Shown piece by piece: positions 4,953-59,104 of a DNA stretch of 64,000 nt; positions within the stretch are counted from its first letter, which is position 1, and the number at the start of each line of letters is the position of its first letter. Source of the DNA: a bacterium. GTDB lineage: Bacteria > Patescibacteriota > Microgenomatia > UBA1400 > UBA12108. Location of the stretch: the NCBI GenBank assembly GCA_021788365.1, contig JAJYKS010000003.1, forward strand, positions 6,283 through 70,282. Direction: 5' to 3'. A program made the position numbers and the translations under genes. The notes under the pieces were generated by a model. It did no database searches. It saw only the letters and a program-made list of their open reading frames with translations, and was not told the origin of the DNA.

Positions 4953-4984
4953 AATTTTCAATTTTCAGTTTACAATTTTCAAAT

Positions 4985-5239
4985 TCAGGGGACGGGGTCA
5001 TAGCCCCCGGCACTCCATGGGTGACATTTTAGCAGGCGGAGCACAGATAACCAAGCGCCCTTTATGAGTCCGTGCTTTGTAAGGGCAGTTTTGGCGTAGA
5101 GCGAACACGTGGGGGTATAGCGGCAACTTCCGTGTGCAAGACCAAGATTAGTTGCAACGGCTTTAAGATAGGGGGAGGTTTTCCGCCAAAGGTAATAGGG
5201 GGCGGAAATAATTTTTAATTTATAATTTTTAATTTTCAT
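4985..5239 (-). CDS. yidD: Membrane protein insertion efficiency factor YidD
   Basis: 84 aa with [11 protein letters not shown]...GGYDPVP, the hallmark YidD motifs. Confidence 0.8.
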
Positions 5240-5851: not shown

Positions 5852-7222
5852 ATGCGAATGGATATTATTTCTACATGGAAAGCAGTACAGGCAGACCTCG
5901 AGCTCTCCATTTCCCCCGTCCACTATTCCACGTGGATCCGCCCACTTTCGCTCACCTCCCTTGAGACAATGTCAGACGGCAGTCATCTTGCCTCCGTTCT
6001 CACCCCCTCCGCATACCATCAACAGATTGTTACTCAACGATACCTTGGACAGCTTGAGCGGAGTTTGGGGCGGGTTTTAGGCGGAAAGACAACGTTGTCT
6101 GTACTTGTTGGTCGGGATGCAACGGAGTCCGTTTCCAGTAAACACCTCAAGCAGCAGGCTGCCCCCTCGCTTTTTTCACCCAATACACTTGCGCCACCCA
6201 CTCCAACAGGCTCTCATAATCTAAACCCTAAATATACCTTTGACACCTATATCGTAGGTGCATCTAACAACTTTGCGCATGCTGCGGCAGTGGGTGTGGC
6301 AAAGACTCCTGGTACGCGCTATAACCCGCTTTTTATCTATGGTGGTGTGGGGCTTGGTAAAACCCACCTTATGCATGCCATCGGCCACGCGATTTTTTCT
6401 GACCACCCCGATTGGGACATTATGTATATTTCGGCCGAAACTTTTGGGAGTGATCTTATCGCTAGCTTACAGAACAAGCGAACGGCACAGTTTAAGAAAA
6501 AATATCGCTCACCAAATGTTCTTCTTGTGGATGACGTGCAGTTTATCGCTGGGAAAGAATATATCCAAGAAGAATTTTTCCACACCTTTAATGAACTCTA
6601 TTTGTCCGGGCGACAAATTGTTATGACTAGCGATCGCCCGCCGCAAGAAATTTCGAGGATTGAAGAGCGTCTATCGTCACGATTCATGGGCGGGCTTACT
6701 GTCGACATCCAGCTTCCTGATTTTGAGACACGAGTGGCCATACTCACCCAGAAATGTCAATCTCTGGGCGTACCGGTCCCCGCGGAGGCCCTTTCCCTCA
6801 TCGCCGAACGGTCGCCAACCAATATCCGAGAGCTTGAGGGAGTTCTCCAGACGATCCTTTCCAAGGCTGCTCCAGGCACCGATCTGACTAGCAATGTCGT
6901 TCGCGAGTACTTTGGCACTGAACACGAGCGGCGGAGCCAACGGGTGCGTCCCAATGCCGTCATCGCCAAGACTGCACAATATTTTGACTTTAAACCATCT
7001 GAGCTCACCGGTAGCAGTAGAAAAGCGCCCTTAGTTGCAGCTCGGCATGTCGCCATGTATCTTCTCTACGTTGATTTTGACTTACCCTATGAACAAATAG
7101 GCGATCTTTTTGGGGGGCGCGACCATACAACCGTTATGCATGCCGTCGAGAAGGTGGCGGGGGAGCTCAAAACCCAAGCTGAGATTGCCAAGATAATTGC
7201 CGATATTAAACATGGGCTGTAA
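5852..7222 (+). CDS. dnaA: Chromosomal replication initiator DnaA
   Basis: 456 aa with the AAA+ Walker A GGVGLGKTHL, sensor motifs, and a C-terminal DNA-binding domain (VAMYLLYVDFDLPYEQIGDLFGGRDHTTVMHA). Confidence 0.95.
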   Translation: MRMDIISTWKAVQADLELSISPVHYSTWIRPLSLTSLETMSDGSHLASVLTPSAYHQQIVTQRYLGQLERSLGRVLGGKTTLSVLVGRDATESVSSKHLKQQAAPSLFSPNTLAPPTPTGSHNLNPKYTFDTYIVGASNNFAHAAAVGVAKTPGTRYNPLFIYGGVGLGKTHLMHAIGHAIFSDHPDWDIMYISAETFGSDLIASLQNKRTAQFKKKYRSPNVLLVDDVQFIAGKEYIQEEFFHTFNELYLSGRQIVMTSDRPPQEISRIEERLSSRFMGGLTVDIQLPDFETRVAILTQKCQSLGVPVPAEALSLIAERSPTNIRELEGVLQTILSKAAPGTDLTSNVVREYFGTEHERRSQRVRPNAVIAKTAQYFDFKPSELTGSSRKAPLVAARHVAMYLLYVDFDLPYEQIGDLFGGRDHTTVMHAVEKVAGELKTQAEIAKIIADIKHGL

Positions 7223-7460
7223 TGTGGATAACTATGGGGAAAAGTCTGTGGATAGGTGAGTGGAAAGTGGTAGGAAAACTAACCCATGTTATGGGTAAAA
7301 GTGGAGAAGTTTGGGGTTATACACCACCCGCTAAGTTATCCCCAGTTTTATCCACCGCGTTTTCCCCCACTCCTACTCGACATGTTTTCCGGAAATCCAC
7401 CGCGCCTACTAGTACTACTACCTTAATTATCTATAATAGGGGGATCATAAAGGAGCCATT
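7223..7460. promoter_or_regulatory. dnaA-dnaN intergenic DnaA-box cluster (candidate oriC)
   Basis: The region holds TGTGGATAA (7224-7232), TGTGGATAG, TTATCCCCA and TTATCCACC. A canonical SD AAAGGAG precedes dnaN. Confidence 0.55.
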
Positions 7461-8558
7461 ATGAATATTGAGATTTTACAGGAACAGCTTGCTAGCGGGC
7501 TCACCTCCGTGCTTCGTGCCGTGTCGTCTCGAGCTCAGCTCCCCGTGCTCTCCCATGTACTTCTTGAAGCTACGGCCGATGGGATTACTTTATCGGCAAC
7601 AGATCTAGAACTGGGTATTCGTATAAAGATCCCCGCTAAAGTTAGCGAGCCCGGAACCATTACCGTGCCCGCCAAGATGCTTTTTGAGTTTCTTTCATCG
7701 CTATCCCCGGGGAAGGTGTCGCTGGCTTTTGCGGGGGAGACGCTTACCGTAGCCTCTGGTTCATATTCGGCAAGTTTCCAGACCCTTCCCGTTGAGGAGT
7801 TCCCCACCCTTCCCGTTTTTACCAAAGAAATTATGGTTGCGACTATTAGGCTCTCGGACTTGACGAGGTCAGCAGATCGAGTAACCTTTGCAAGTGCCAA
7901 GGACACTTTGCGGCCGGCACTTACTGGCGTTCTCCTTGAGTCGGGAAAGGAATTGACTTGTGTTGCAACAGATGGGTTTCGCCTGGCCGTACAAAAAATT
8001 CCGGTTACTTCTGGTAGCGGATTCGCAACATCTCTACTCGTTCCTGCTCGAGCAATCGGAGAAGTGGCCCGGACGGCATTCCCCGAAACCATAGATGTTG
8101 GTTATATTGCCGAGTCGCATCAGCTGCTTTTTTCCTCCCCTGAAACGATGGTAGTGACACAGCTTTTAGATGGCAACTTTCCTGATTATGGGAAAATTCT
8201 TCCCAAGGAGTTTACTTCGGAGCTTTTACTTTCCCGAGCTGAGTTGCTGCAAGCTGTTAAGGCTGCCCATATTTTTGCACGCGACAACTCCAATATGATG
8301 CGGTGGAAGGTGGAAAAAAAAGAACTAACCATCTCTGCGCGCAGTCCCGAGCGAGGGGAGTGTGTGGTTCGGGTGCCAATTACCACTACCGGCGAAGATG
8401 GGGAAATAGTATTTAACACAAAATATATTCTGGATTATTTGGGCGTTGCCGAGGCTGACGAGCTATGGTTCGGGATGAAGGGCTCGCTTGCTCCCGGAAT
8501 GTTCCGCGATGGAAAAAGTGACACCGGGATGTATGTTGTTATGCCAATAAATGCGTAG
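7461..8558 (+). CDS. dnaN: DNA polymerase III beta sliding clamp
   Basis: 365 aa with a three-domain clamp pattern (LLEATADGITLSATDLELGI...). It directly follows dnaA. Confidence 0.9.
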   Translation: MNIEILQEQLASGLTSVLRAVSSRAQLPVLSHVLLEATADGITLSATDLELGIRIKIPAKVSEPGTITVPAKMLFEFLSSLSPGKVSLAFAGETLTVASGSYSASFQTLPVEEFPTLPVFTKEIMVATIRLSDLTRSADRVTFASAKDTLRPALTGVLLESGKELTCVATDGFRLAVQKIPVTSGSGFATSLLVPARAIGEVARTAFPETIDVGYIAESHQLLFSSPETMVVTQLLDGNFPDYGKILPKEFTSELLLSRAELLQAVKAAHIFARDNSNMMRWKVEKKELTISARSPERGECVVRVPITTTGEDGEIVFNTKYILDYLGVAEADELWFGMKGSLAPGMFRDGKSDTGMYVVMPINA

Positions 8559-8604
8559 AGGTATTTGGTGCGTCAGTATATCGGCTTGTCGGCAAATCGG
8601 TTTT

Positions 8605-10542
8605 TCAGTTTGTCGGCTGAATCGGAGTGGAAACGGGGTTTGCTTGCGGGCCGGCATTCTGATTCGCTGGCACACTAGCCCGCTGATTTGCTGGTGTGCT
8701 ACCCGGCTGATTGTCCGGAATTTTGGCTGCCATGGCCACGGCTAGTTTTTGCTGCTTTGCCAAAAGTTCTCGAGGGTCGGTGGTGATTAGGCCATGCTCT
8801 TCTGGGGAGGCGACAACTTTTATGGCGACGTGGTTTTGGCCGGCGAAAAAAAGCGCTTCACCAACCTCGGCGGTGAGTAGCAAGTGTCGCTCTCCTTGGG
8901 AGAGATAGAAGACTTTAGCAAGGTTTTCTATCGCGGAAGTCGATTGTTTCATTAAAACCTGGATACTGCTGTTGCTGACGATAGCCTTCCCGTGGTCTGA
9001 TTTAAGAAAATCATCCACATCTTGTGTAATGGTGGTGAGCCCTAGAAAGTATTTGCGGGCTCGCTTGGCAATACTATAGAGAAAGTTGGCGGAGTCTTCG
9101 GATTTCATGAGGTACCAGGCCTCATCAACTACCAGTAAACGCCTCTTCATGTCGCGCTTTACCTTGGTCCAAATATAGTCAAGAATGATAAAGATGGCGG
9201 TTGGGCGCAGCTCGTCTTGAAGATTCTTAATACCAAACACTGTGAGTCTGTTTCCGAAGTTGACGTTTGATTTCTGTGAAAAAATGCCTTGAAAACTTCC
9301 CTTTACGTATTTTTCTAGCCTGTCTGCAAGGCCGCGGGCAACAGACTCTTCCATGCCAACAAGCGCCTTATATAAATCCTCCATGAGCGGTGGTTCTAGG
9401 TTGTGAGTTGCTGGGTCGCGCGTAATTCCCTTCATCTGATAGGTCATAACCAGCGCGCGGTCGAGGAGAGCTTCCTCGGTTGGGTTCATGTCGCCCATCA
9501 TGATTTTTAACAGTGAGTGGAGCGAGATGATTTTCATAGCGAGCTCGTTTTCATCCGGCTCAGCCATTTGTGGCAGCTCAAACGGATTTATACGATTTGG
9601 ACTGCTAAAGCTAAAATCAACATAGGTGCCACCCAGGGTTGTTGCAAGTTTGCGATACTCGTCTTCAGGGTCAATTGCAATAACCTCCGTGTCGAACAAC
9701 ATAGAGCGCAAAACCTCGAGTTTTACCATGTAGCTTTTGCCAGAACCGGATTTGGCAAACACAACCATGTTGGCGTTCTCTAGCGTAAAGCGATCAAAAA
9801 TAACGAGCGAGTCGTTGTGCTCATTGATGCCATACATAATCCCTTCATTTGCGGTCAGCTCACTTGAGGTGAAGGGAAAGGTGGTGGCAAGGCTCGTTGT
9901 GTCCATGTTGCGGTTAATTTTTAATTTGTCGAGGCCGGTGGGGAGCGTCGTCTTGAAGCCATCTTCTATTTGTAGCGTGGCAGTTTTGGCAACAATGAGG
10001 AGCGCGCCCAAAGCACTTTTTACTTGATTGGTCACCCGGTCGAGCATATCCTTTTTGTCGTCCCGGATCGTAACATAGAGTCCGAATTGAAAGAAGCGTT
10101 CGGCGCCCTTGGCGAGTTGTTCTTGTAGGGCGCGAGCATCTTCGAGCTTTACCTGAGTGTCAATGTTGACGATTCGGCCACGCTGGATGTCGCCCGCTAT
10201 TTCAGCCTCCATCTCGGCGATCTTGCGGCGCAAGTCTTCGATAACCCCTTTACCCTCTACTGGGTAAATAAACATAGAGATAGTAAGGCTGTGATTAAAG
10301 TTTATGAGTGGCGAAAGCCAGTTGGCGTTTACAAAGCGTGGGTAGCCGGCGACAAAGAGGGTGCGGTAGTAGGTATCGTTGATTTTAATATCGGAAAAAT
10401 CGACCTCAATGGCTTCTGGGGCGATAATGTCTTTGACGTTGGACGTTCCCTGTGAGAGAACTTGTACCGGCTGAGAGACGGCAGGGCCACTAGTATCGTC
10501 TTTCTTTTTCGGCATGAATGGAAAGGGCAGGTTAAGAGCCAT
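8605..10542 (-). CDS. VirB4/TrbE/CagE-like type IV secretion ATPase
   Basis: 645 aa with Walker A VVFAKSGSGKSYMVKLE, Walker B LLVVDEAW, and the N-terminal DUF87-like region typical of VirB4. The low-complexity C-terminal tail (PANQ repeats) is encoded by the octamer-periodic element. Confidence 0.8.
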   Translation of the reverse strand: MALNLPFPFMPKKKDDTSGPAVSQPVQVLSQGTSNVKDIIAPEAIEVDFSDIKINDTYYRTLFVAGYPRFVNANWLSPLINFNHSLTISMFIYPVEGKGVIEDLRRKIAEMEAEIAGDIQRGRIVNIDTQVKLEDARALQEQLAKGAERFFQFGLYVTIRDDKKDMLDRVTNQVKSALGALLIVAKTATLQIEDGFKTTLPTGLDKLKINRNMDTTSLATTFPFTSSELTANEGIMYGINEHNDSLVIFDRFTLENANMVVFAKSGSGKSYMVKLEVLRSMLFDTEVIAIDPEDEYRKLATTLGGTYVDFSFSSPNRINPFELPQMAEPDENELAMKIISLHSLLKIMMGDMNPTEEALLDRALVMTYQMKGITRDPATHNLEPPLMEDLYKALVGMEESVARGLADRLEKYVKGSFQGIFSQKSNVNFGNRLTVFGIKNLQDELRPTAIFIILDYIWTKVKRDMKRRLLVVDEAWYLMKSEDSANFLYSIAKRARKYFLGLTTITQDVDDFLKSDHGKAIVSNSSIQVLMKQSTSAIENLAKVFYLSQGERHLLLTAEVGEALFFAGQNHVAIKVVASPEEHGLITTDPRELLAKQQKLAVAMAAKIPDNQPGSTPANQRASVPANQNAGPQANPVSTPIQPTN

Positions 10543-10544
10543 AT

Positions 10545-10672
10545 CCTATCAGTATACCAGCTAGTCGGCGAGTCGGCGGGCCGGCATGTCGGCTTGTCAG
10601 CGAGGCCGGAAAACCGATGCACCGATTTAACTGATTGGCTGACTAGCTGATTTGCTGATTTGCCGACTATCT
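10545..10672. repeat. Octamer-periodic (NNGTCGGC)n / (GCTGATTT)n intergenic element, one of at least five copies
   Basis: TAGTCGGC GAGTCGGC GGGCCGGC ATGTCGGC TTGTCAGC ... GCTGATTT GCTGATTT GCCGACTA. It is flanked on the gene side by CAGTATAcc (TATACT -10 on the coding strand) 8 nt before the VirB4 ATG. Confidence 0.5.
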
Positions 10673-11305: not shown

Positions 11306-11437
11306 ACGGACTCAGTATATCAGTAGGTCGGCAAGTCAGCGAATCGGTTGGTCGGTATGTCGGCTTGCCAGTAATCGCCGAAACCTGGCTTACAGGTTTA
11401 GCTGGTTAGCTGACCCGCCGGTTTGCTGGTGTGCCGA

Positions 11438-12475
11438 TTATTGTGCTCGGAGGAGGATGGGGGGGATGATGTCTCCTTTGGTTGTCAGCGATTGTGGGGC
11501 GAACTTGAGACCATCCTTTTCCACTTCAATGGCATAGGAGCCGTTTCCGAGAGGTGTGGTGGTAAAAAACTGTCCAAGGCCGTTGGTTTTCATGGCGCGG
11601 GCGGGGATCCCGTCTCCCATCACTACCTGAACAATGGCGTTTTCTACTAGGTGCCCCCCTTTGTCGACGACTATTCCCGTTATCACATTGGGGATTTGGG
11701 GCGCGGCGGGCAGCTTAATTGTTGTCAGGGGGGTAGACGCAACTTTTGGCGCGGTAGTGGGGCTTGTGGGGCGGGAGAAAACCACATCAACCGTTGGCGG
11801 AGGGCTTTGTGGGGTTTTTGTGGGTGCTGCTGCAACGGTGGGTGTTGGCGTCACGGGGATCGATATCGTACGTAACGGTGGCGCGGGCGGGGTCGCCGCC
11901 GGAGACGGAGCGTTGTTATCGAATACTATACTTTTTGCTTTTAGTTTGCGGATTGTTACTGCGGGCTTGGCGCTACTGGTTTCGACGATGGTAACTGGTG
12001 GAACGGCGGGGGAGATGTGTACTTTCTGAAATAGCGCGTCGACCTCGTGGACCTGCTTTGCTTCTTCTGTCGAGAGGTCGCTTGTTACCGTTTTTCGTAC
12101 GGGAAGCGTTGGTGCTTTGAGTGTTTTTACCGCCGTAGGAGTATCTACAAAAATGTGGGCGGCGAAGGTAAACATTTCAGGAATGGTATTTGTCTTTTTC
12201 CAAACGAAACGGGTGGGGCCATAGATGGCTTTAACAAAATTAAGTGCCCAGATGTCCAGTGGACGATCTTCGAGTGGAAAGAATGCAAAGGCTATTCCAC
12301 CAAAAAGCGAGATGAGTGCGAGCGGCCACTTGAATATAAAAATCAGATTGCTCGCATAGAAAAGGTAGGCGACGAGCATCCCGGCAGCTAGTTCCAAAAA
12401 TTGTTTGAGCGTCATGTCTCCCACAAGGCGGAACTGATATTGTGTAACGTTCTGAGGAATGGGGTGTTGCTGCAT
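11438..12475 (-). CDS. PrgI/VirB3-like membrane protein with a Pro/Thr-rich linker and a C-terminal beta-sandwich (carboxypeptidase-regulatory-like) domain
   Basis: The N-terminus FRLVGDMTLKQFLELAAGMLVAYLFY plus two TM helices resembles PrgI-family VirB3 analogues. A long PT-rich spacer precedes the GIVVDKGGHLVENAIVQV...GSYAIEVEKDGL fold. The likely start is the ATG at 12473-12475 (MQQHPIP; the ORF-track start at 12499 is a TTG), with a TATACT box 6 nt upstream. Confidence 0.5.
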   Translation of the reverse strand: MQQHPIPQNVTQYQFRLVGDMTLKQFLELAAGMLVAYLFYASNLIFIFKWPLALISLFGGIAFAFFPLEDRPLDIWALNFVKAIYGPTRFVWKKTNTIPEMFTFAAHIFVDTPTAVKTLKAPTLPVRKTVTSDLSTEEAKQVHEVDALFQKVHISPAVPPVTIVETSSAKPAVTIRKLKAKSIVFDNNAPSPAATPPAPPLRTISIPVTPTPTVAAAPTKTPQSPPPTVDVVFSRPTSPTTAPKVASTPLTTIKLPAAPQIPNVITGIVVDKGGHLVENAIVQVVMGDGIPARAMKTNGLGQFFTTTPLGNGSYAIEVEKDGLKFAPQSLTTKGDIIPPILLRAQ

Positions 12476-24572: not shown

Positions 24573-24754
24573 ATGGAGAGATTATAGCAGGAAGAAGTGG
24601 TCAATGATGTTTTGTCTCGCCGTGTTCTCAAATGAAAGACCGACCCACCTGGTCGCGTGCGCCACAATTTTGCAGTGCTCACAGCTTACTGGAACAACCA
24701 GTTCGACGCTCCGCGCTGAAAATTGCTCTGCACGCTCCCCTTTTGGCGAGTTAC

Positions 24755-26622: not shown

Positions 26623-26979
26623 TTATAAACCACTGTTGAGGATCTGCACTCCTGTAACAACTTGAATAATCTGGATGATCCAGTATGATCCGAAAAGTAC
26701 CAATAAACCAACTAACGCAGATGTGATGATTTTACTTCCTTCTTTGGTTTTTTCTGAGTTCCCAGCGTTTGCGACAATGGTAAAGCCGCCGAACACGATC
26801 ATAAAAAAGATAACAAGGCCAGCAGCAACGTAGACGTTGGGGAGGATGGCGTTTATCAGCTTGCTTGCATTGGGGTAGGTAGAGGTGGCAGTGGAATTGC
26901 CCTGGAACAGAAGCTTGTCGCCGAGATTGAAACCAGTAGCGGCCATAGTGAGGAAATTATAGCAGGTTGAGCTGGCCAA
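26623..26979 (-). CDS. VirB2/TrbC-like T4SS pilin paralogue 7 (first gene of the operon)
   Basis: 118 aa with GGFTIVANAGNSEKTKEGSKIITSALVGLLVLFGSY. A TGCTATAAT box lies 9 nt before the ATG. Confidence 0.65.
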   Translation of the reverse strand: MASSTCYNFLTMAATGFNLGDKLLFQGNSTATSTYPNASKLINAILPNVYVAAGLVIFFMIVFGGFTIVANAGNSEKTKEGSKIITSALVGLLVLFGSYWIIQIIQVVTGVQILNSGL

Positions 26980-27028
26980 TCACGATTTTATTGTTGCTCC
27001 TAAAACTTTTCGCTCAATTTATTGCTCG

Positions 27029-27057
27029 CGGAGATCTGGGCAGCGACGCTCGCCCAG
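27029..27057. promoter_or_regulatory. Near-perfect 28-29 bp palindrome in the divergent promoter region between the pilin array and the ECF sigma gene (candidate operator)
   Basis: gatctgggcagcg a cgctcgcccagatc forms 13 bp arms with a single bulged C, centred between the divergent starts. Confidence 0.45.
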
Positions 27058-27155
27058 ATCCATGTTCGCATTTAGAGTAGAATTCGCTCAAAGTTTCTTA
27101 ACGTATGCACAAAAATCGTTCTCGGCCAGTTTATGGGGGGGGTAGAATAGCGGGT

Positions 27156-27689
27156 ATGGAGATAATTGTTGAGGAAGTGTTGCAAGGTAAGCGGGGGGCG
27201 GCAACGCGCTTTTATCTCCGATATGCGCCCGGAGTTCGCCGTTATCTTTTGGCAAAATTGCCAGATGAACATATAGCGGAAAATTTGTTGCAAGATGTTT
27301 TTTTGTCGGCGTTTGATTCACTTGCCTTGTACCGCGGCGATTCGAGTGTTGCAACATGGCTTCTTTCGATTGCGCGACACGAGGTGGCCGATTACTGGCG
27401 GAAGTATTATGTGCGCAAAGCAGTCGAGAAGACGAGCCCACTCTTTGAGACGATTGTGTCGGAGATGCTTTCACCGGAATTTGCCTCATATAAGAGCAGA
27501 TTACGCATGCGGTTTATGCGGGCATATCACACTGTGGGCGTGCAATATCAGGATGTGTTGTCCTACCGCTATGAGCTCGGGATGAGTGTAAAAGAGATTT
27601 CTATAAAAATGAACCTGTCATTTAAGGCGACGGAGTCGCTCTTGTACCGAGCACGGCAGGCATTCGCGGCGGCGTATGAACAAGGATGA
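27156..27689 (+). CDS. ECF-type sigma-70 family RNA polymerase sigma factor
   Basis: The region 2 motif LLQDVFLSAFDSLALYRGDSSVATWLLSIARHEVADYWRK and region 4 motif QYQDVLSYRYELGMSVKEISIKMNLSFKATESLLYRARQAF are both present. A TAGAAT box lies 7 nt before the ATG (MEIIVEEV). Confidence 0.75.
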   Translation: MEIIVEEVLQGKRGAATRFYLRYAPGVRRYLLAKLPDEHIAENLLQDVFLSAFDSLALYRGDSSVATWLLSIARHEVADYWRKYYVRKAVEKTSPLFETIVSEMLSPEFASYKSRLRMRFMRAYHTVGVQYQDVLSYRYELGMSVKEISIKMNLSFKATESLLYRARQAFAAAYEQG

Positions 27690-32165: not shown

Positions 32166-32861
32166 ATGCTAGACAGAAATACCATTCCAAAACATGTGGC
32201 GATCATCATGGATGGGAATCGGCGGTGGGCGAAAAAACAAGGTTTAGCTGCTGTTGCTGGACACCAATATGCGATAGATCACGTTGTTGAAAATTTAATA
32301 GAGCGGGCGGGGGAGATGGGGGTCCAGTACCTGACCCTGTGGGCATTTTCGACGGAGAATTGGGGGAGAGAAAAGACTGAAGTAGATGGAATAATGAATA
32401 TGTTTCGCAATGCACTTGTGACGAAAGTAAAAAAATTTATCGAGCAAGGAGCGAGGTTGCGAATGATCGGGGATATGAGTCGATTTTCCCTCGACATACA
32501 AGAGGGAATGAAGAAGGCGATGGCGGCGAGCGAGAAAAATGACAAAATTATCGTGACATTTGCTCTCAACTATGGGGGGAGAGATGAGATTTTGCGGGCT
32601 ATCCGCAAAATCTCATCAGATTCTAGAAGAGAGATTCTAGAAGAGAGTGAATTTGAGAAGTATCTGGATACGGCGGGAATGCCGGATCCGGACCTTATCA
32701 TTCGTACGGGAGGGGAGCAGCGCATGAGTGGATTCCTTATGTGGCAAGCCGCATACGCAGAGTACTACTTTACCGAGACACTTTTCCCTGAGTTTACGCC
32801 AGAGAAATTTGACGAGGCGATTGCAGAGTACCAGAAGAGACAACGGAGATTTGGGAAGTAG
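32166..32861 (+). CDS. uppS: Undecaprenyl-diphosphate synthase (cis-prenyltransferase)
   Basis: HVAIIMDGNRRWAKKQGL...YLTLWAFSTENWGR are the hallmark UppS motifs. Confidence 0.9.
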   Translation: MLDRNTIPKHVAIIMDGNRRWAKKQGLAAVAGHQYAIDHVVENLIERAGEMGVQYLTLWAFSTENWGREKTEVDGIMNMFRNALVTKVKKFIEQGARLRMIGDMSRFSLDIQEGMKKAMAASEKNDKIIVTFALNYGGRDEILRAIRKISSDSRREILEESEFEKYLDTAGMPDPDLIIRTGGEQRMSGFLMWQAAYAEYYFTETLFPEFTPEKFDEAIAEYQKRQRRFGK

Positions 32862-32885
32862 GCTTATGCTGATCGCACCCCCACT

Positions 32886-32978
32886 CCCAAACGCAAAACT
32901 CGGTCTATCTGCGACTGGTGTCGCAGCGACCTAGAACTCGGGCTACCCGCCACTTGCGCTCCTGTTTTGCAACTTGTG
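32886..32978 (+). ncRNA. Copy 1 of a conserved ~91-93 nt 3'-UTR element (structured RNA / REP-like repeat)
   Basis: Core CCCAAACGCAAAACTCGGTCTATCT-[7 bp hairpin, TGGT loop]-CGACCTAGAACTCGGGCTACCCGCCACT..TTTTGCAACTTGTG. Hairpin arms are ctgcgac/gtcgcag. It starts 24 nt after the uppS stop. Confidence 0.5.
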
Positions 32979-32998
32979 AGCGTGGGCGTGATCAGTTT

Positions 32999-33337
32999 TT
33001 ACGAGACGATGCTGACTTTGAAGATAACCTGGAGAATCTGGGCGATCCAGTAGGCGGCGAAGATAACAATAAAGCCGATCACGGCGTTGGTGATCATGGA
33101 CTTTCCCTTTTCAGCGGCGTCCTTTTCAGCAGCTCCGGTTAGCATGGTAAAACCACCAAAGATAAGCATGCCAAAAAGGATGATACCGGCTAATGTAAGG
33201 AGATAGGGTAAGAAAACGGAAATGATGCTACCAATATTTCCCGAGGCAAGGCTACCTTTAAGACCCAGCGTACTATTGAGGGTTCCGTATTGAGAAGTGC
33301 CGTAATCTATAGCGAAGGCGCGTGGTATTAATTGCAT
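32999..33337 (-). CDS. VirB2/TrbC-like T4SS pilin paralogue 8 (second locus)
   Basis: GGFTMLTGAAEKDAAEKGKSMITNAVIGFIVIFAAYW. The likely start is MQLIPRAF, coupled to the upstream gene through TAAtATG. Confidence 0.65.
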   Translation of the reverse strand: MQLIPRAFAIDYGTSQYGTLNSTLGLKGSLASGNIGSIISVFLPYLLTLAGIILFGMLIFGGFTMLTGAAEKDAAEKGKSMITNAVIGFIVIFAAYWIAQILQVIFKVSIVS

Positions 33338-33941: not shown

Positions 33942-35711
33942 ATTGCTGTCGCTATTTTAGTCGGATTGTCTCTAGTTATTCTAGCACACGGCCCAGCTGT
34001 GGCAGACAACTGTGATAACTACGACCAGAGGAGTCAAGCATACTATGACTGTTTGGGACGCAGCATTGACGACCTCAATAGCCAGTTACAAGCATCAGTC
34101 AATGCAACAAAGCCACTTCAGAGCCAAGTAGATAACCTTTCAAAACAACTTGAAAGTTTGCAAGGACAGATAACGGCAGCAGAAGGTAAGATCCGGAACC
34201 TTTCTGACAGCATTACTCTGCGCGAGCACTCCATCGCTAATCAGTACGTCATATTAGCTATCAAAGTGCGCGATTATTACAAAAAAATGCAGCTTTATAA
34301 CCCGTTTATGGTCTTCCTATCTTCGGGGCGGGCGAGCGACGTGGTGCGTGGACTTGCATATAGAGCCATTTCTGTGGACGATGACAAGAACCTCATTGTA
34401 AACATTACCAACGACATTATTCAGCTCGAAGCGGACAAAAAGCAGGTAGAGGCAGGGAAACAACAACTCGCAGCGCTTCAGGCTAAGCTTGATACACAGA
34501 AGGCGTTTTTTGATAAACAGATCGCAAGTGCACAGTCATGGCAAGCACAACTCTCAAACCAAATAGCGTCGCTGTCGGCCAAACAACAGGCGTTTTTAGC
34601 GGCTAAATTGGCAGGGCTCAATATTCCCCTATATGCCCTCTCTGGTGGTGGGTGTTCTAGCGATCTGACCAATGGTAAGGATCCGGGATTTTCTGGTGGC
34701 TTCGGATTTTTTACTTTTGGTGTGCCAAATCGAGTGGGCCTTAACCAATATGGCGCTTGGGGGAGGGCGAAGGCGGGGGAGAACGACGAACAAATCCTTC
34801 ATGCGTATTATAACTTTGATTCGATCTCGGGTGTGGATACGGGAACGACTATACGCGTGAACAACGGCAATGGGATAAATCAGGGCAGCGTCATTTGGAG
34901 CGGTAGCATAGAGGACTATGTGAAACGGGTGTATGAGGTCCCGGATAGTTGGACGGATAATGGAAATGCAGCGCTTAAAGCACAAGCGATCGCGGTACGG
35001 TCTTATGTACTTGCTGCAACCGATAATGGTGCAAACTCTATTTGTGCAAATCAATATTGTCAGGTATTTAAGACCGACCCTAAGGGTGGTAACTGGGACA
35101 GCGCGGTTTCTGGGACTTCTGGACAGGTAATGCTTCAGGGTGGCAAACCGATTAAGGCTTATTTTTCCTCTACACATGGTGGCTATGTGTATGCGACGGC
35201 AGACTTATCGGGATGGAGCTCGACATCGTTCACCAAGCGGGCCATTGATACCCCGTCTGGATCGGTATCGTCAATTTCTGATTTGCGAAGTAATGCGTAC
35301 GACCGAGATAGTCCCTGGTTTTACTGCGACTGGGGTGGGAGGAGTCAGTATGGGGGTACGGCGTGGCTGAAGCCGTCGGAAATGGCCGACATTGTAAACG
35401 TCATCCTCCTTGCCAAACAGGATAGCTCGGCGCAGTCACACCTTTCTCAACCGGATAAACCAAACCCAGAGGGTGTAGATACATGGGATGCCGGAACCGT
35501 TGCCGGTAAATTGGGTGGGTCCGCGTACTCCACGGTGGATAGTGTTAGTATGAATTTTGATTTTGGCAGTGGGAAGACTACTTCAGTGACTGTTTCTGGG
35601 AGTGGACATACAAATACTTTTGACGCTAATACGTTTAAGGATTATTTTAATTTGCGGGCGCCCTCGAATATCCAGATCGTGGGGCCACTCTATAATGTAG
35701 AACGAAGGTGA
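33912..35711 (+). CDS. Secreted coiled-coil protein with a C-terminal SpoIID/LytB-like domain (cell-wall remodelling)
   Basis: 599 aa with a signal peptide and a long heptad-like N-terminal half. The C-terminal half carries SpoIID-type motifs (AQAIAVRSYVLAA...NQYCQVFK...GKPIKAYFSSTHGGYVYA). The annotated 5' end overlaps the divergent gene by 30 bp, so the true start is uncertain. Confidence 0.6.
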   Translation: MFPRPVKLLHIAVAILVGLSLVILAHGPAVADNCDNYDQRSQAYYDCLGRSIDDLNSQLQASVNATKPLQSQVDNLSKQLESLQGQITAAEGKIRNLSDSITLREHSIANQYVILAIKVRDYYKKMQLYNPFMVFLSSGRASDVVRGLAYRAISVDDDKNLIVNITNDIIQLEADKKQVEAGKQQLAALQAKLDTQKAFFDKQIASAQSWQAQLSNQIASLSAKQQAFLAAKLAGLNIPLYALSGGGCSSDLTNGKDPGFSGGFGFFTFGVPNRVGLNQYGAWGRAKAGENDEQILHAYYNFDSISGVDTGTTIRVNNGNGINQGSVIWSGSIEDYVKRVYEVPDSWTDNGNAALKAQAIAVRSYVLAATDNGANSICANQYCQVFKTDPKGGNWDSAVSGTSGQVMLQGGKPIKAYFSSTHGGYVYATADLSGWSSTSFTKRAIDTPSGSVSSISDLRSNAYDRDSPWFYCDWGGRSQYGGTAWLKPSEMADIVNVILLAKQDSSAQSHLSQPDKPNPEGVDTWDAGTVAGKLGGSAYSTVDSVSMNFDFGSGKTTSVTVSGSGHTNTFDANTFKDYFNLRAPSNIQIVGPLYNVERR

Positions 35712-35866
35712 CCGGCCCTCCTTGCTATTTTTTGCTAACGACTCCGCTCCTTCCAGGAAAAATCAGTTTACTTGTGCCTCGCTGCACAGATTTTTCTTGG
35801 GCGGTGCTCATATATCGCAAAAAATACAAGAGAGTGCCTGATTGTGATCTGTGTTACCATATACGT

Positions 35867-36529
35867 ATGGCAGACGTGTACTCCGCAGGTCAGGGACAGG
35901 CAACGCCGCAACCCAAGGCGTCCTCACCTATGGCACATATCCACGACATTGTGAATGCCCATGGCGTGGAATCACTCTTGTCTAGTTTTTCTTCGTTTCC
36001 ACAGAAAGTGTGCTTTGAGACACAGGATGATAATGAACAGGTAGTCCTTTTTATGCGACAGCACCCAATTGTGAACGTGCCTTGGATAACTCTTACCATC
36101 CTCATGCTTGTTGTCCCCTCCGTGTTTTCATTTTTTCCTCCATATATGATGATGCCGGGTACGTATCAGTTTGTCGTAACGTCGGGTTGGTATTTGTTTG
36201 TTTTCGGGTACGTGCTCGCTAAATTCATGGGTTGGTTTTTTAATATCTATATCGTTACTAACGAGCGGGTGGTGGATGTTGATTTCTCCAACATTTTTTA
36301 TCGTAGGATCTCTACGGCACGCCTTGAGGAAATACAAGATGTAAATGTCACTAGTGCGGGCGCGTTTGAGACATTCTTTGGCTATGGGCAAATCACCATA
36401 CAGACGGCGGCGGAGGTGCCGGAATTCGAGTTCGAGTCGGTTCCGCACCCAGATGTTGTAGGGAAGGTATTGAATGAACTCGTTGATATCGAACATGGTG
36501 AGGGAGAGAAGGGGGCACCGAACGTATGA
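35867..36529 (+). CDS. Membrane protein with a bacterial PH (bPH_2/YdbT-like) domain
   Basis: Two TM helices are followed by FNIYIVTNERVVDVDFSNIFYRRISTARLEEIQDV...GQITIQTA, typical of bPH_2. The start is taken at MADVYSAG. Confidence 0.5.
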   Translation: MADVYSAGQGQATPQPKASSPMAHIHDIVNAHGVESLLSSFSSFPQKVCFETQDDNEQVVLFMRQHPIVNVPWITLTILMLVVPSVFSFFPPYMMMPGTYQFVVTSGWYLFVFGYVLAKFMGWFFNIYIVTNERVVDVDFSNIFYRRISTARLEEIQDVNVTSAGAFETFFGYGQITIQTAAEVPEFEFESVPHPDVVGKVLNELVDIEHGEGEKGAPNV

Positions 36530-38504: not shown

Positions 38505-38527
38505 GGACGTGGCGTTCGTCTGGATTT

Positions 38528-38618
38528 CCCAAACGCAAAACTCGGTCTATCTGCGCCTGGTGGCGCAGCGACCTAGAACTCGCGCTACCCGCCACTGCGT
38601 TGTGTTTTGCAACTTGTG
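38528..38618 (+). ncRNA. Copy 2 of the conserved ~91-93 nt 3'-UTR element
   Basis: Same core as copy 1. Hairpin arms are ctgcgcc/ggcgcag (compensatory change). It starts 24 nt after the upstream stop. Confidence 0.5.
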
Positions 38619-38659
38619 AAATCCCGACTGCACGCCCTAATTTTTTCTTGAGGTAGAAT

Positions 38660-39100
38660 ATGGGTATGATTTTGAATAAAAATGCCAAGCGGGAGTACAG
38701 TATATCCGACACATTGGTGGCGGGGGTGGTGCTCACGGGCGCGGAGGTGAAGACGCTGCGCGAGGGGCGGGGAAGTCTGCGTGACGCCTACGCGCGATTC
38801 TTAAACGGTGAGCTGTACCTGGTGGGCGCCGACATACCGCAGTACAGCCACTATTCGGGGAAGGAATACGACGCGAAGCGGAGCCGGAAACTCCTTTTAA
38901 ACAGCCGCGAAATACTAAAATTGCAGCAACAATTGGAAGGCAAGAATCTGACACTCGTGCCTTTGAAATTGTTTTTCCAGGGACGATGGGTGAAGTGCGA
39001 GCTGGGGGTAGGACGGGGAAAGCGGGAATATGAGAAGCGGGAAGACTTGAAAAAGCGAGACGTAGAACGAGAGATTGCGAAGGCTATGCGGACCAACTAA
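38660..39100 (+). CDS. smpB: SsrA-binding protein SmpB
   Basis: LVAGVVLTGAEVKTLREGRGSLRDAYARFLNGELYLVGADIPQYS and the basic C-terminal tail are SmpB hallmarks. Confidence 0.9.
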   Translation: MGMILNKNAKREYSISDTLVAGVVLTGAEVKTLREGRGSLRDAYARFLNGELYLVGADIPQYSHYSGKEYDAKRSRKLLLNSREILKLQQQLEGKNLTLVPLKLFFQGRWVKCELGVGRGKREYEKREDLKKRDVEREIAKAMRTN

Positions 39101-39101
39101 A

Positions 39102-39127
39102 AATCCCGCAAAAGCGGGATTTTGCTG
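39102..39127. terminator. Bidirectional rho-independent terminator shared by smpB and the convergent candidate tmRNA
   Basis: AAAATCCCGC-AAAA-GCGGGATTTT is a perfect 10-bp-stem hairpin with T-runs on both strands. Confidence 0.7.
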
Positions 39128-39529
39128 TGGAGACGGAGGGCAGTGAGCCCTCGTCCGCGTGCTGCTACTAACATCATCTACATACGTAGTTCATTTTATT
39201 TTTAACCTCATGCTGTCCCGGGAATGAACGAACCAAAATAGCAAGAGGGTTGTCGATTGATTTGGGCCAGAGTGACAAGACCTGGCTTACGGCCTGTGTC
39301 TGTTTCCACCCAACTACCGCGCCACAAGCGACTTGGTAGTGAATGCCGTTAGGCAAATGCCGGTACGAAACCAGCGTTGTCTGCGGGAGTAAAGAGACCT
39401 ACAAAGAAGTCTTTTACTGCAGTCAAAGGATTTTTGACAGTTATTTTTTGGCTCTTTTTTACGACTTCCTTAGCCAAAGTCGGTATGCAGATGTTAATGA
39501 GCGAGTACACGTCAATACAAGACGTCCCC
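39128..39529 (-). ncRNA. ssrA: Candidate tmRNA (SsrA), about 402 nt, CCA not encoded
   Basis: Minus-strand 5' GGGGACG pairs with 3' CGUCUCC, including G3:U70 (the Ala identity element), followed by discriminator A. The 3' tRNA-like domain GGAC-GAGGG-CUCACUG-CCCUC-CGUCUCCA parallels E. coli GGAC-GCGGG-UUCAACU-CCCGC-CAGCUCCA. An internal frame GCA GAC AAC GCT GGT TTC GTA CCG GCA TTT GCC TAA encodes the tag ADNAGFVPAFA* (39349-39384). The upstream promoter is TGGTACCAT. Confidence 0.55.
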
Positions 39530-44424: not shown

Positions 44425-44586
44425 GGATTTAGTATAGACAATTCTGATGGTCGCCTACATCAGGATTACGGCGAACTAAAGCGGATTTATCTCGCTGAAA
44501 CCTCGCCCTAGGGGATATGAAGAAATATATTCGTGGGAAATCTAAGTTGTAAGCCCGCCTTCGCTAAAGCTACGGCGAGGTGAAAG

Positions 44587-44670
44587 CGGAGACGGTGGGA
44601 GTCGAACCCACAGGACCCTTTTGGGGCCACGGTTTAGCGAACCGTCCGAGTACCGTTGTCGCACGTCTCC
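44587..44670 (-). tRNA. Class II tRNA with a long variable arm, anticodon GCU (tRNA-Ser)
   Basis: Minus-strand read GGAGACG..ACGGT-UCGCUAA-ACCGU-[16-nt variable arm]-GUGGGUUCGACUCCCAC-CGUCUCC-G. T-loop GTTCGAC. CCA is not encoded. Loop position 33 is C, which is unusual. Confidence 0.65.
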
Positions 44671-44694
44671 AACGAAGAAATTATATCAGGGAGG

Positions 44695-44777
44695 CGGAGG
44701 AGGCGGGACTCGAACCCACGAGTGCTTTCGCACGGAGGTTTAGTAAACCTCTGCCGTAGCCGCTGGGCCACTCCTCC
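44695..44777 (-). tRNA. Class II tRNA (long variable arm); anticodon loop UUACUAA, identity unresolved
   Basis: Acceptor GGAGGAG/CTCCTCC, T-arm GTGGGTTCGAGTCCCGC, 3-bp D-stem, 16-nt variable arm. By hand the anticodon reads ACU, which is atypical. Confidence 0.55.
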
Positions 44778-54421: not shown

Positions 54422-55772
54422 CGATACGGGGGATTATCGATATCGCGCACCGAAGGGTTTGTCGGAATCTCTAGTTCGCGAGCTGTCCCGCCAAAAGAAC
54501 GAGCCACCATGGATGCTTGATATACGACTTGCGGCGCTTGCCCAGTTTTACGAGATGGCGATACCTACTTGGGGAGCTAACCTCTCCGACATACGTTGGG
54601 ACGATATCCACTATTACCTGAAACCTGTCGAGCGGCCCTATAAAAATTGGAAAGAAGTGCCCGACGAGGTACGCAAAGTATTTGATGCGATCGGCGTGCC
54701 GGAAGCAGAGCGAGAACAGCTCGCAGGCGTGGGAGGACAATACGATAGCGAGGTTATCTATCATAGTTTACATAAAACCCTTTCTAAGAAGGGTGTTGTG
54801 TTTCTATCTATGGATGAGGGACTGAAGCAGTATCCCGAGATCGTGCGGAAGTACTTTGGTACGATCGTGCCATACGGCGACAATAAACTGGCAGCCCTCA
54901 ATACGGCAGTATGGAGCGGCGGCAGCTTTGTGTACGTGCCAAGTGGTGTGGATGTACAGCTGCCCTTGCAAGCATATTTTCGTATAAACTCGGAGAACGC
55001 GGGGCAGTTTGAGCGAACACTCATTGTTGCTGAAAAGGGGGCACGCGTACACTACGTGGAAGGGTGCTCCGCCCCCGCTTTTAGCAGTGCGAGCTTGCAC
55101 GCGGCTGTTGTGGAAGTGATTGTCGAAAATGGTGCGAAGGTGCGCTACACCACTGTGCAGAATTGGTACAAGAACGTTTATAACCTTGTTACCAAACGGG
55201 CGACGGTTGCTGCGGACGGGGTGATGGAATGGGTGGATTGCAATCTAGGGAGCAAAATAACCATGAAGTATCCGTCGTGCATCCTCCGGGGAGAGCGGGC
55301 ACGTGGGGAGATGCTGTCTATTGCTGTTGCTGGGGAGGGACAGCACCAGGACGCAGGGGCAAAGATGCATCACCTAGCACCTCACACTACCAGTAGAATC
55401 ATCTCGAAATCTATTTCTAAGGGTGGGGGGCGTAGCTCATATAGAGGAATGGTAACAATGGCTCCAACGGCGATAGGCGCCAAGAGCAAGGTGGTGTGTG
55501 ACGCACTTATTCTTGACCCTGCAAGCCGTAGCGATACGTATCCCACGAATCGGATACTGACGGGTGCGGCAACCGTGGAACACGAAGCGACGGTGTCGAA
55601 GATTGGCGAGGAACAGCTTCTCTACCTTATGTCACGAGGCATGACACAAGTGGAAGCGGAGGGGATGATCGTCCGCGGGTTTCTGGAGCCGGTCGTGGCC
55701 GAGCTGCCCTTAGAATATGCAGTGGAACTTAACCGGCTCGTGAATATGGAAATGGAAGGGAGTGTGGGATGA
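54393..55772 (+). CDS. sufB: Fe-S cluster assembly scaffold SufB
   Basis: The C-terminus EEQLLYLMSRGMTQVEAEGMIVRGFLEPVVAELPLEYAVELNRLVNMEMEGSVG closely matches the canonical SufB end. Confidence 0.8.
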   Translation: MDSYTLGFHSDTGDYRYRAPKGLSESLVRELSRQKNEPPWMLDIRLAALAQFYEMAIPTWGANLSDIRWDDIHYYLKPVERPYKNWKEVPDEVRKVFDAIGVPEAEREQLAGVGGQYDSEVIYHSLHKTLSKKGVVFLSMDEGLKQYPEIVRKYFGTIVPYGDNKLAALNTAVWSGGSFVYVPSGVDVQLPLQAYFRINSENAGQFERTLIVAEKGARVHYVEGCSAPAFSSASLHAAVVEVIVENGAKVRYTTVQNWYKNVYNLVTKRATVAADGVMEWVDCNLGSKITMKYPSCILRGERARGEMLSIAVAGEGQHQDAGAKMHHLAPHTTSRIISKSISKGGGRSSYRGMVTMAPTAIGAKSKVVCDALILDPASRSDTYPTNRILTGAATVEHEATVSKIGEEQLLYLMSRGMTQVEAEGMIVRGFLEPVVAELPLEYAVELNRLVNMEMEGSVG

Positions 55773-55792
55773 CTTCACAACCATTGCACGCC

Positions 55793-55883
55793 CCCAAACG
55801 CAAAACTCGGTCTATCTCCGCCTGGTGGCGGAGCGACCTAGAACTCGGGCTACCCGCCACTGCGTTGTGTTTTGCAACTTGTG
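55793..55883 (+). ncRNA. Copy 3 of the conserved ~91-93 nt 3'-UTR element
   Basis: Hairpin arms are ctccgcc/ggcggag, a second compensatory variant. It starts 21 nt after the sufB stop. Confidence 0.5.
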
Positions 55884-55961
55884 GGCTTTGCAATGATTGT
55901 TTACTGTTTGATTTTGTTTTTTGTAGCGTAAAAACAGGACAACCCAACCGAGGTCACGTGT

Positions 55962-56432
55962 ATGAATAGAGCTGTTATAAGGTATGACCAGCCAGGGGAG
56001 TGGGAAGTGAAGATCCCGTTTGCAAAAATGGGAGAGGAAAAGGAATGGGTGGGGGTGGTGAAAGCAATGACACCAGGTACCTACAACCTGTCCGTCACGG
56101 CGGAGCATAGTGCGCGGGGCACGCGGGGAAGGATTACGGTAAAAGCTGTGGCTGCGAAGGGTGCAACGGTGAACATTCAAGGGATGATAAAGATATACAA
56201 AGCGGCGCAGCAGACTGATGATTTTTTAGAACTACGTGTCCTAACGCTTGATCCTTCAGCGCGGGCGACGGCAGAGCCAAAACTCGAGATAGAAGCGGAT
56301 GATGTGAGGGCGTCGCATGCCGCGTCGGTCGGGCCGGTTGATCCCGAACAACTCCTGTACCTTATGTCGCGCGGTTTGGGTGAGGAGCAGGCAAAAGAGA
56401 GCATTGTAGACGGGTTCCTACAGATAACGTAG
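55962..56432 (+). CDS. Short SufD-like protein (C-terminal beta-helix region only)
   Basis: 156 aa ending DPEQLLYLMSRGLGEEQAKESIVDGFL, the SufB/SufD C-terminal signature. The N-terminal two-thirds of a normal SufD are absent. Confidence 0.45.
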   Translation: MNRAVIRYDQPGEWEVKIPFAKMGEEKEWVGVVKAMTPGTYNLSVTAEHSARGTRGRITVKAVAAKGATVNIQGMIKIYKAAQQTDDFLELRVLTLDPSARATAEPKLEIEADDVRASHAASVGPVDPEQLLYLMSRGLGEEQAKESIVDGFLQIT

Positions 56433-58050: not shown

Positions 58051-59104
58051 GGTTGGGAAGGCGATCGATGGTGGCGGGGTTGGCAAAATCACCGCGGAGA
58101 TATTGATGGTAGGCTGCGACACCAATCATGGCAGCGTTGTCGGTGAAGAGTTTTTTGGTATAGGGGATGAATGTCGGTATCCCACATTCTTTGGCGACCG
58201 CGCGAGTGAGGGTGCGGAGCGCAACGTTGCTGACGACACCACCGCCTAGGAGAATCATTTCGGGTGAGTAGAGGTCTATCGCTCGGCGGAAGCGCTTCAT
58301 AAGATGTTTGAATACAGCTACCTGGAAGCTCGCTGCGAAGTCGGCGACGAACTCCTTAGTTAACTCTGGCTTTTCCCGTTCTAGGAAGTAGCGCACTTGG
58401 GTTTTTAAGCCGGAGAAACTAAAGTTTAGATCTTTCCGCGTCGTCATGGGTTCGGGGAGGTGATATTTTGGCGTGCCGACTTTGGCGAGCTCTGCCACGA
58501 TGGGGCCACCGGGATAGCCAAGCTGCAGCATGCGCCCGACTTTGTCATAGGCCTCACCGGCGGCGTCGTCCAGCGTCTCACCTATAAGTTCGTAATCACC
58601 GATACCTCGCATTAAAACGAGCTCTGTGTGACCGCCGGAAATGAGAAATCCTAAAGCAGGATAGGTTGCATACCTGGTACGTGATCTGGTGATTTTGGTG
58701 TTAGGAGTTGCAAAACTACTTAACAGATGGCCCTCCATGTGGTTGGCGGCGATAAGGGGGAGCGACCATTTCTCTGCCAATTCTTTAGCATACGCGATAC
58801 CCTGCTCTAGAGAGGGGGCGAGGCCGGGACCAACCGTTACTGCTATCGCAGTAACGCAATTTTCATTTTTCAGTTTACAATTTTCAAATTTGAACCCTGC
58901 TTTTCGCATGGCGAGGTCGACAACTTTTGGCAACCACTCGTGGTGCAAACGACGTGCGATGTCGGGGACGGTGCCACCCCACTCGGCATGATAGCGGGTT
59001 TGGGAGGAGACGACACTGCTTATGACGCGCGTGCCACGGGTGACGGCGGCGCACGTGTCGTCGAGACTCGTCTCGATAGATAAAATAGTTGGTTCTTTCG
59101 TCAT
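57998..59104 (-). CDS. tsaD: tRNA N6-adenosine threonylcarbamoyltransferase TsaD (Kae1/YgjD), with a 12-aa in-frame heptamer-repeat insertion
   Basis: ILSIETSLDDTCAAV, HMEGHLLSS, LISGGHTEL and GVVSNVALR motifs. The peptide KFENCKLKNENC (58858-58896) is encoded by the AATTTTC repeat and is absent from E. coli TsaD at that point. Confidence 0.85.
   Translation of the reverse strand: MTKEPTILSIETSLDDTCAAVTRGTRVISSVVSSQTRYHAEWGGTVPDIARRLHHEWLPKVVDLAMRKAGFKFENCKLKNENCVTAIAVTVGPGLAPSLEQGIAYAKELAEKWSLPLIAANHMEGHLLSSFATPNTKITRSRTRYATYPALGFLISGGHTELVLMRGIGDYELIGETLDDAAGEAYDKVGRMLQLGYPGGPIVAELAKVGTPKYHLPEPMTTRKDLNFSFSGLKTQVRYFLEREKPELTKEFVADFAASFQVAVFKHLMKRFRRAIDLYSPEMILLGGGVVSNVALRTLTRAVAKECGIPTFIPYTKKLFTDNAAMIGVAAYHQYLRGDFANPATIDRLPNLNFPKASVQPSPVASNT

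Follow-up and report, generated by a model that had tools for sequence, protein, structure and literature searches.

The window, by which we mean the whole 64,000-nt stretch of DNA that was analysed, encodes proteins whose best named relatives belong to Candidatus Gottesmanbacteria / Patescibacteria. The genome is very compact: over 82 kb, genes are separated by a median of about 15 nt, and many of them overlap. Most of its intergenic gaps longer than 100 nt are long hairpins, which comprise three families (referred to here as A, B and C), singletons and hairpins built of 8-nt repeats. Among the landmarks of the window, a cluster of DnaA boxes at 7224-7367 (GTGGATAA / TTATCCAC), located between dnaA (5852-7222) and dnaN (7461-8558), is probably oriC; the inverted repeats at this position were considered as a mobile element and rejected, as they are the DnaA boxes. 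GC skew is positive over all 81.6 kb, also to the left of dnaA, and gives no replication direction. The tmRNA gene (39125-39529, minus strand) adjoins smpB, and ARAGORN calls two adjacent tRNA-Ser genes, both on the minus strand, at 44586-44670 and 44693-44777, with anticodons gct and act; the second alone reaches the Rfam gathering score, and an act anticodon is odd for Ser. A 33-nt A/T-rich repeat, AATTTTCAATTTTCAGTTTACAATTTTCAAATT, occurs at 4953-4985 and at 58858-58890, the two copies being 97% identical and 54 kb apart, and has weaker relatives at 2647, 3541, 5210 and 40134.

Family A was first noticed as a repeat of 91-93 nt. Exact pattern searches recover three copies of this core in the window, all on the plus strand and all at the positions given by the first-pass annotation (Table 1). 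Shuffled sequence yields no match to the core patterns, and a full covariance-model scan of the window, run with filters off, finds the same three copies and no degenerate ones. The ends of the core are sharp (CCCAAACGC...CAACTTGTG), with alignment identity falling to noise immediately beyond them. The distance from the preceding stop codon to the core is 24, 23 and 20 nt for copies 1, 2 and 3 (ORF ends 32861, 38504 and 55772), close to the 21-24 nt originally described. Two of the three upstream genes had been named correctly, as Prenyltransf/UppS and as SufB-type (SufBD_N + SUFBD_core); the third, taken for a beta-propeller membrane protein, encodes a 596-aa protein without a Pfam match. The next gene after copy 3 starts at 55962 and encodes 156 aa with a SUFBD_core match. 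As a side observation, the product of this gene (55962-56432) matches the C-terminal half of SUFBD_core alone (profile positions 120-232), and is an unusually short SufD-like protein lying just downstream of the element.

Table 1. Family A elements, related hairpin families and 8-nt-repeat blocks. Positions are those of the window, or of the related locus where one is named by its L number.
Feature	Position	Strand	Remarks
Copy 1, left arm	32869-32885	+	CTGATCGCACCCCCACT; pairs with 32979-32995 in the minimum-free-energy fold; starts 7 nt past the uppS stop codon (32859-32861)
Copy 1, conserved core	32886-32978	+	93 nt; inner hairpin 32909-32926; covariance-model score 113.6 bits
Copy 1, right arm and T-run	32979-33000	+	AGCGTGGGCGTGATCAG at 32979-32995, then TTTTT at 32996-33000; the T-run meets and overlaps the stop codon (32999-33001) of a pilin-like gene that converges on the minus strand
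Copy 2, left arm	38505-38527	+	GGACGTGGCGTTCGTCTGGATTT; directly after the TGA of the 596-aa gene
Copy 2, conserved core	38528-38618	+	91 nt; inner hairpin 38551-38568; 7-nt direct repeats AACTCGG at 38539-38545 and 38577-38583
Copy 2, right arm and T-run	38619-38646	+	AAATCCCGACTGCACGCCC at 38619-38637; after 3 nt, T-run TTTTTT at 38641-38646; downstream, -10-like TAGAAT (38654-38659), then smpB start (38660)
Copy 3, left arm	55777-55792	+	ACAACCATTGCACGCC; begins 5 nt past the sufB stop codon (55770-55772)
Copy 3, conserved core	55793-55883	+	91 nt; inner hairpin 55816-55833
Copy 3, right arm and T-rich tract	55884-55925	+	GGCTTTGCAATGATTGT at 55884-55900, then T-rich tract
Copy 4 (deleted)	L014:14864-14916		3 kb outside the window; 21 nt past an NTPase gene's stop codon
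Family B	35712-35866; L014:17637-17779; L007:3653-3796; L008:1088-1223		inner TATTTTTTGC...GCAAAAAATA repeat
Family C	26966-27134; L007:9303-9485		
8-nt-repeat blocks	410-463; 713-766; 2487-2548; 8571-8624; 10547-10670; 11310-11441; L014:16680-16811		

Three further statements of the first-pass annotation concern the nature of the repeat. That it is not a protein-coding module agrees with our results, as the reading frames differ between copies and the peptides of the open frames in the core match nothing among 5.8 billion proteins. The 1-nt indel ascribed to copy 1 is, in the alignment, a 2-nt indel accompanied by several substitutions in the 3' part. Finally, the limits first drawn for the repeat were wrong, in that each copy is flanked by complementary arms of its own. 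The non-coding element as a whole, family A, measures about 125-135 nt, and the 91-93-nt repeat is its core, the part whose sequence is conserved.

The full element forms one imperfect hairpin, whose outer arms of 16-23 nt are copy-specific and always mutually pairing. The core is itself a conserved imperfect inverted repeat, CCCAAAC-GCAAAAC ... GTTTTGC-AACTTGTG, with an asymmetric centre that holds a 7-bp hairpin and two 7-nt direct repeats. Extended by 25-32 nt of flank, every window copy adopts one long hairpin fold, with z = -3.5 to -4.5. As evidenced by a matrix of duplex energies, arms pair with their own partners at a mean of -17.5 kcal/mol, compared with -8.0 +/- 2.7 against the arms of other elements, and the own partner is the best-pairing arm in nine of 11 elements from the three families. 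To illustrate, the left arm of copy 1 forms a duplex of -22.4 kcal/mol with its own right arm and of -8.0 on average with arms taken from other copies. Within each copy the outermost 16-23 nt are inverted repeats, which differ between copies, the inner imperfect inverted repeat is conserved, and conserved outermost terminal repeats are absent among family A copies. A search of the arm sequences against all related loci returned self matches alone, with no significant complementarity elsewhere. The 9-mer TGCACGCCC, shared by the arms of copies 2 and 3, was considered as a solo palindrome family and is not enriched in the window. In the window copies the left arm begins 0-7 nt past the stop codon and fills the space ahead of the core, which accounts for the distance of 20-24 nt between stop codon and core.

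Two additional copies lie outside the window. Copy 4 lacks 38 nt, which is exactly the segment between the AACTCGG direct repeats and includes the covarying inner hairpin; three independent assemblies contain this deleted copy. The fifth copy, at locus L013, occupies a new site immediately behind the SpoIID gene of a strain with 96% identical SpoIID. One genome thereby carries four family A copies within about 82 kb, and a sister strain has the fifth. Occupancy was compared with two more distant genomes, which we call the 85% relative and the 63% species. The sites orthologous to the three window copies are gaps of 1, 8 and 25 nt in the 85% relative, with neither core nor arms, and gaps of 20-22 nt in the 63% species. 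The covariance model, which had been recommended as a check, was built and scanned; within the window it recovers only the three copies, and it has no match in either the 85% relative or the 63% species. An apparent 155-nt insertion after SpoIID in the 63% species (L146:8294-8392) was rejected as a scaffolding artefact, being a run of Ns with duplicated flanks.

In sister strains with identical SpoIID, two of the sites held by family A in the window are held by other families, uppS being followed by family B and the 596-aa gene by family C. In all, three gaps are filled by different families in two sister lineages. At the latter site the upstream gene is identical over 190 nt, up to its last two codons, and smpB downstream carries 5 SNPs per 100 nt. 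Judged from these flanks, the swap looks like an import by homologous recombination from a diverged strain, and not like a fresh transposition. A strictly empty site within the same species was not found. A homologue search with the MFS transporter, aimed at empty sites for copies 3 and 4, led only to contigs of the same species with the same copies, and SufB and SmpB gave a like result. Contigs of independent short-read assemblies break inside family A copies; for instance, a Logan contig of 17,234 bp spans from within copy 2 to within copy 3.

Copies lying indiscriminately on both strands relative to the flanking genes had been named as an observation that would speak against a selected structure. 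All five copies are co-oriented with the upstream gene, a bias that is statistically weak with five independent insertions, and all 11 copies of families A, B and C share one chromosomal direction. Copies 2 and 4 have in common 12 nt on the 5' side of the left arm (GGAGTGGTTTGG, encoding the ...EWFG that ends two unrelated genes) and 10 nt on the 3' side of the right arm, and such sharing is improbable by chance (p about 2.5e-4 and 2.4e-3, respectively). No target-site duplication is seen at any of the five sites, with no consistent direct repeat and no TA at both ends, and no transposase, RAYT or integrase domain is encoded within the approximately 82 kb covered of the 580-kb contig.

The pairing of the inner hairpin is as first described (ctgcgac/gtcgcag, ctgcgcc/ggcgcag and ctccgcc/ggcggag), every stem substitution being compensated. 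Across the five distinct cores, 79 of 79 cells of the 18 core pairs are standard, three pairs have changed on both sides and none is broken; slid controls fall to 33-57% paired. RNAalifold folds four full copies into one hairpin of 39 pairs, 12 of which are preserved by changes on both sides. The arms give a parallel result. The left arm of copy 2 is homologous to the left arms at L013:2977-2997 and L014:14843-14863 (the L013 copy and copy 4), with changes that preserve pairing, and the arms of these three loci can be aligned in register at 16 pair positions. Five compensatory double changes are seen among them, including T-A to C-G three times in copy 4, and a bulged T and a T.C mismatch are conserved. 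These homologous, co-varying arms at three loci imply that the arms are part of the element and change rapidly within the limits set by pairing, whereas the core keeps its sequence. Indeed, the core of copy 4 is identical to those of copies 2 and 3 at 53 of 53 positions, and its arms are about 70% identical to those of copy 2. Conservation so much greater in the core than in the arms is unlike that of a neutrally decaying selfish repeat, and points to constraint at the sequence level or to gene conversion.

Covariation was initially taken as the hallmark of a selected RNA or DNA secondary structure. The compensatory pairing is real, but the inference of a selected RNA is too strong, since mobile DNA hairpins behave likewise; compensatory changes are frequent in REPINs, which are hairpin-forming mobile DNA (PMC3116915). 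The arm mismatches are balanced, with about four G.T versus four A.C and hence no strand asymmetry, and the antisense strand folds 3-9 kcal/mol better than the sense strand, owing to the shared core. With these two properties the strand on which the structure acts is not assignable. The combination of a conserved core with covarying variable arms serves as a caution that covariation alone cannot separate functional RNA from hairpin mobile DNA.

Families B and C are built like family A, with a conserved core that contains an inner inverted repeat and with copy-specific complementary arms. The window copy of family B starts directly after the SpoIID stop codon and occupies the beginning of the ORF called at 35708-36529, which is therefore an overcall with its real start near 35867. 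Another family B copy, just outside the window, separates the two genes of a split transketolase. In the window, family C is found where a pilin operon and a sigma-70 gene diverge, in the gap that separates them, and in sister strains this family occupies the site of copy 2. Co-transfer of flanking sequence was considered, since the two family C copies have similar flanks, as have B4 and C1, and was rejected, as the likeness is explained by promoter-like -10 boxes beside start codons. Such -10-like hexamers (TAGAAT, TACCAT, TATAAT; 38654-38668, 27140-27158 and L013:3130-3150) are found 6-9 nt ahead of the ATG in several places, namely at smpB, at the sigma-70 gene, at the gene that follows SpoIID and at the pilin operons. 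Their position so near the ATG suggests that the transcripts are leaderless or carry very short leaders. A singleton long hairpin at about 24655-24735, upstream of the pilin operon, has arms GCGTGC.../...GCACGC and, further in, the pair CAATTTTGCAG/CTGAAAATTG; in a sister strain (L008) its place is taken by a family B copy. Lastly, 8-nt periodic repeats (TAGTCGGC / CAGCTAGT) with complementary halves give rise to further long intergenic hairpins, several of which sit between type-IV-secretion-like genes (TraC-like and VirB4/TraG-like).

We consider it likely that family A is a lineage-specific, non-autonomous dispersed hairpin repeat of MITE/ERIC/SPRITE-like kind in a Gottesmanbacteria-like CPR bacterium. 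A REP/MITE-like family was among the options first offered, and is favoured by the presence or absence of copies, the family swaps at one site, the deletion derivative and the assembly breaks. Arms and core move together to new sites, and copies appear and disappear between close relatives, the pairing of the whole hairpin being maintained by compensatory changes. The surviving copies are confined to the short interval that separates a stop codon from the signals of the following gene (promoter, RBS or convergent stop codon), and survival solely in this interval is also why the core always lies 20-24 nt past the stop codon. Mobilisation could be provided in trans, or the element might be copied by recombination; in either event the mobilising step would need the hairpin and the core sequence and not specific terminal sequences. 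Once in place, the element would be co-transcribed with the upstream gene, and its long stem with a U-rich tail may act as a 3'-end structure, that is, as a partial terminator, an exonuclease block or an RNase III substrate.

The same hairpin and U-tract might instead be primarily a cis-acting RNA module of the host, a terminator or 3'-end stabiliser for which dispersal is secondary. This we regard as unlikely. In its favour, all five sites are directly past a stop codon and share the strand of the gene, and the right arm leads into a T-run in copies 1, 2 and 4 and into a weaker T-rich tract in copy 3 and the L013 copy. Copies 2, 4 and L013 lie just 5' of a -10-like box 6 nt before the next ATG, which makes these places apparent transcription-unit boundaries. 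Canonical terminators are not enriched in the region, the core is far better conserved than the arms, and the SPRITE repeats of pneumococci provide a precedent (PMC3049150). Nevertheless, copy 3 lies inside the suf operon, ahead of a gene led by an SD sequence, and family B, of the same architecture, lies between the halves of the split transketolase, where efficient termination would be harmful. Families B and C are mostly without T-tracts, and one C copy is in a divergent promoter region. The 85% relative copes with gaps of 1-8 nt and no comparable structure, and copy 4 persists without the covarying inner hairpin. In addition, G.T does not outnumber A.C among the arm mismatches when these are read on the sense strand, and the antisense strand gives slightly better folds. 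Of the termination or stability role in 3' UTRs that was originally suggested, a cis effect may still hold, to judge from the T-rich tract after the hairpin; the element itself is better read as REP/MITE-like. A canonical intrinsic terminator was considered separately and rejected, since a consensus scan calls none at family A copies and the loop, of 3-8 nt in such terminators, would be the 91-nt core.

A broader proposal, to which we would give an outside chance, treats A, B and C together, either as structure-defined mobile hairpins lacking a classical transposase and target-site duplication, or as the host's portable punctuation between leaderless units. Under the first alternative they would constitute a class defined by a conserved core and freely evolving self-complementary arms, spreading and replacing one another at CPR gene ends. 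Single-stranded hairpin intermediates or microhomology-mediated copying are possible routes, and the 12-nt and 10-nt flanks shared by copies 2 and 4 would fit the latter. Under the second, the hairpins would be terminator or insulator modules.

It is also conceivable, though quite improbable in our view, that the 91-nt core alone is mobile and inserts into the loops of existing gene-specific terminator hairpins, with the arms being target DNA. IS1397 inserts into the loops of REP sequences and is a precedent for such an event. In all three families every copy has arms of its own, plain strong hairpins exist at some convergent gene ends (L017:20609-20674 and L014:12186-12252), and the cores possess inner inverted repeats of their own. 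Set against this are the homologous arms of copies 2, 4 and L013, which occur at three loci in the same register with a shared bulge and mismatch. About 250 kb of related sequence contains no solo hairpin made of these arms, families that replace one another at a site have no arms in common, and the 85% relative has neither arm at the orthologous sites.

Least of all do we expect genes for trans-acting small RNAs, for which nothing was found in support despite their mention in the first-pass annotation, or a known structured RNA class (ribozyme, tRNA-like, 6S/Y-like): a stable conserved structure with compensatory changes would suit either, but there is no Rfam match at the element even at E<=10, ARAGORN calls nothing there, no promoter-like site precedes a left arm that begins within a few nt of the preceding stop codon, the element is missing from the 85% relative, a copy without 38 nt of core (copy 4) is retained, and the arms lack significant complementarity to other sequence in the loci examined.

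Family A has no counterpart in the databases searched. The Rfam search proposed at the outset (release 15, whole window) returns tmRNA and tRNA alone at the gathering threshold, chance-level matches far below it being added at E<=10, and no known RNA family matches the element. Exact 20-mers searched against genome and metagenome collections, which do not include the host genome, gave chance matches only, to unrelated sequence (L001-L003). Viral contigs, searched with two core motifs and then with the covariance model, gave weak, seed-driven matches only, and blastn against plasmids and phages gave no match. Several classes were rejected on other grounds. Integron attC sites are not a match, as the hairpin has no R''/R' sites (RYYYAAC ... 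GTTRRRY) at its base and is conserved in its centre instead; moreover, the flanking housekeeping genes are 5-17 kb apart and there is no integrase in the annotated loci. A DGR variable repeat, a retron, a CRISPR/TIGR array and an in-frame RPE-like insertion were rejected on anatomy.

A full-text search of the literature found no description of MITE or intergenic palindromic repeats in CPR/Patescibacteria. Small dispersed repeats have hardly been described in the CPR, and here three or more hairpin families occur in a genome whose genes are spaced by about 15 nt. These families differ between sister strains with identical SpoIID and fragment metagenome assemblies. If the hairpin and U-tract affect 3' ends, they would be a source of rapid regulatory variation in regulator-poor organisms.

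Among known systems, family A meets the description of MITEs in size and copy number (non-coding, multi-copy and, at about 125-135 nt, below the approximately 300 bp typical of them) and in insertion polymorphism, with a new site at L013 and empty sites in the 85% relative; it lacks the target-site duplication, as seen when the five insertions are compared with empty sites. REP units are 20-40 nt long, with a conserved GTAG or CGTC tag at the hairpin ends and a variable middle (PMC3733652, PMC3116915). REPINs, which are mobilised by RAYT, resemble family A in being extragenic hairpin DNA with compensatory changes, and their structure has been proposed to matter in single-stranded DNA (PMC3116915; PMC8266576; PMC3733652). 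Their polarity is the opposite, however, as REPINs have conserved REP ends with the GTAG/CGTC tag and a variable spacer, whereas family A has a conserved middle and variable ends, no tetranucleotide tag common to its arms, and no RAYT within 82 kb. This conserved-centre, variable-ends polarity could reflect a variant mechanism.

ERIC/RU-1 (PMC2759123) and the Correia/NEMIS elements of Neisseria (PMC10969869) are likewise imperfect palindromes of about 100-170 nt that form long stem-loops. They too lie in transcribed intergenic DNA or at gene 3' ends and do not encode a transposase; their occupancy differs from strain to strain, and RNases may cleave them once they are transcribed. In contrast to family A, they have conserved terminal inverted repeats, TA termini with duplication of TA, and conservation over their full length, none of which is seen at the copies studied here. 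SPRITE repeats (PMC3049150) are dispersed, non-coding and shorter than 200 nt, with a long duplex followed by a U/T-rich tract; they are concentrated near coding 3' ends in one species group and have no identifiable target-site duplication or matching IS. Family A is like them in these respects, only partly so in the T-tract: its five sites are all beside 3' ends, and T-runs are clear in copies 1, 2 and 4 but weak in copy 3 and the L013 copy. SPRITE sequences are unrelated to those of family A, however, and have AAAA/TTTT ends and a single 18-bp duplex conserved between copies, whereas family A carries a structured 91-nt core at the tip of the hairpin and a copy-variable stem base, in a host of another phylum and genome type. 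Taken together, these comparisons are best read as placing family A, as a new family, within a well-known type of small mobile DNA, and not among the known RNA genes.
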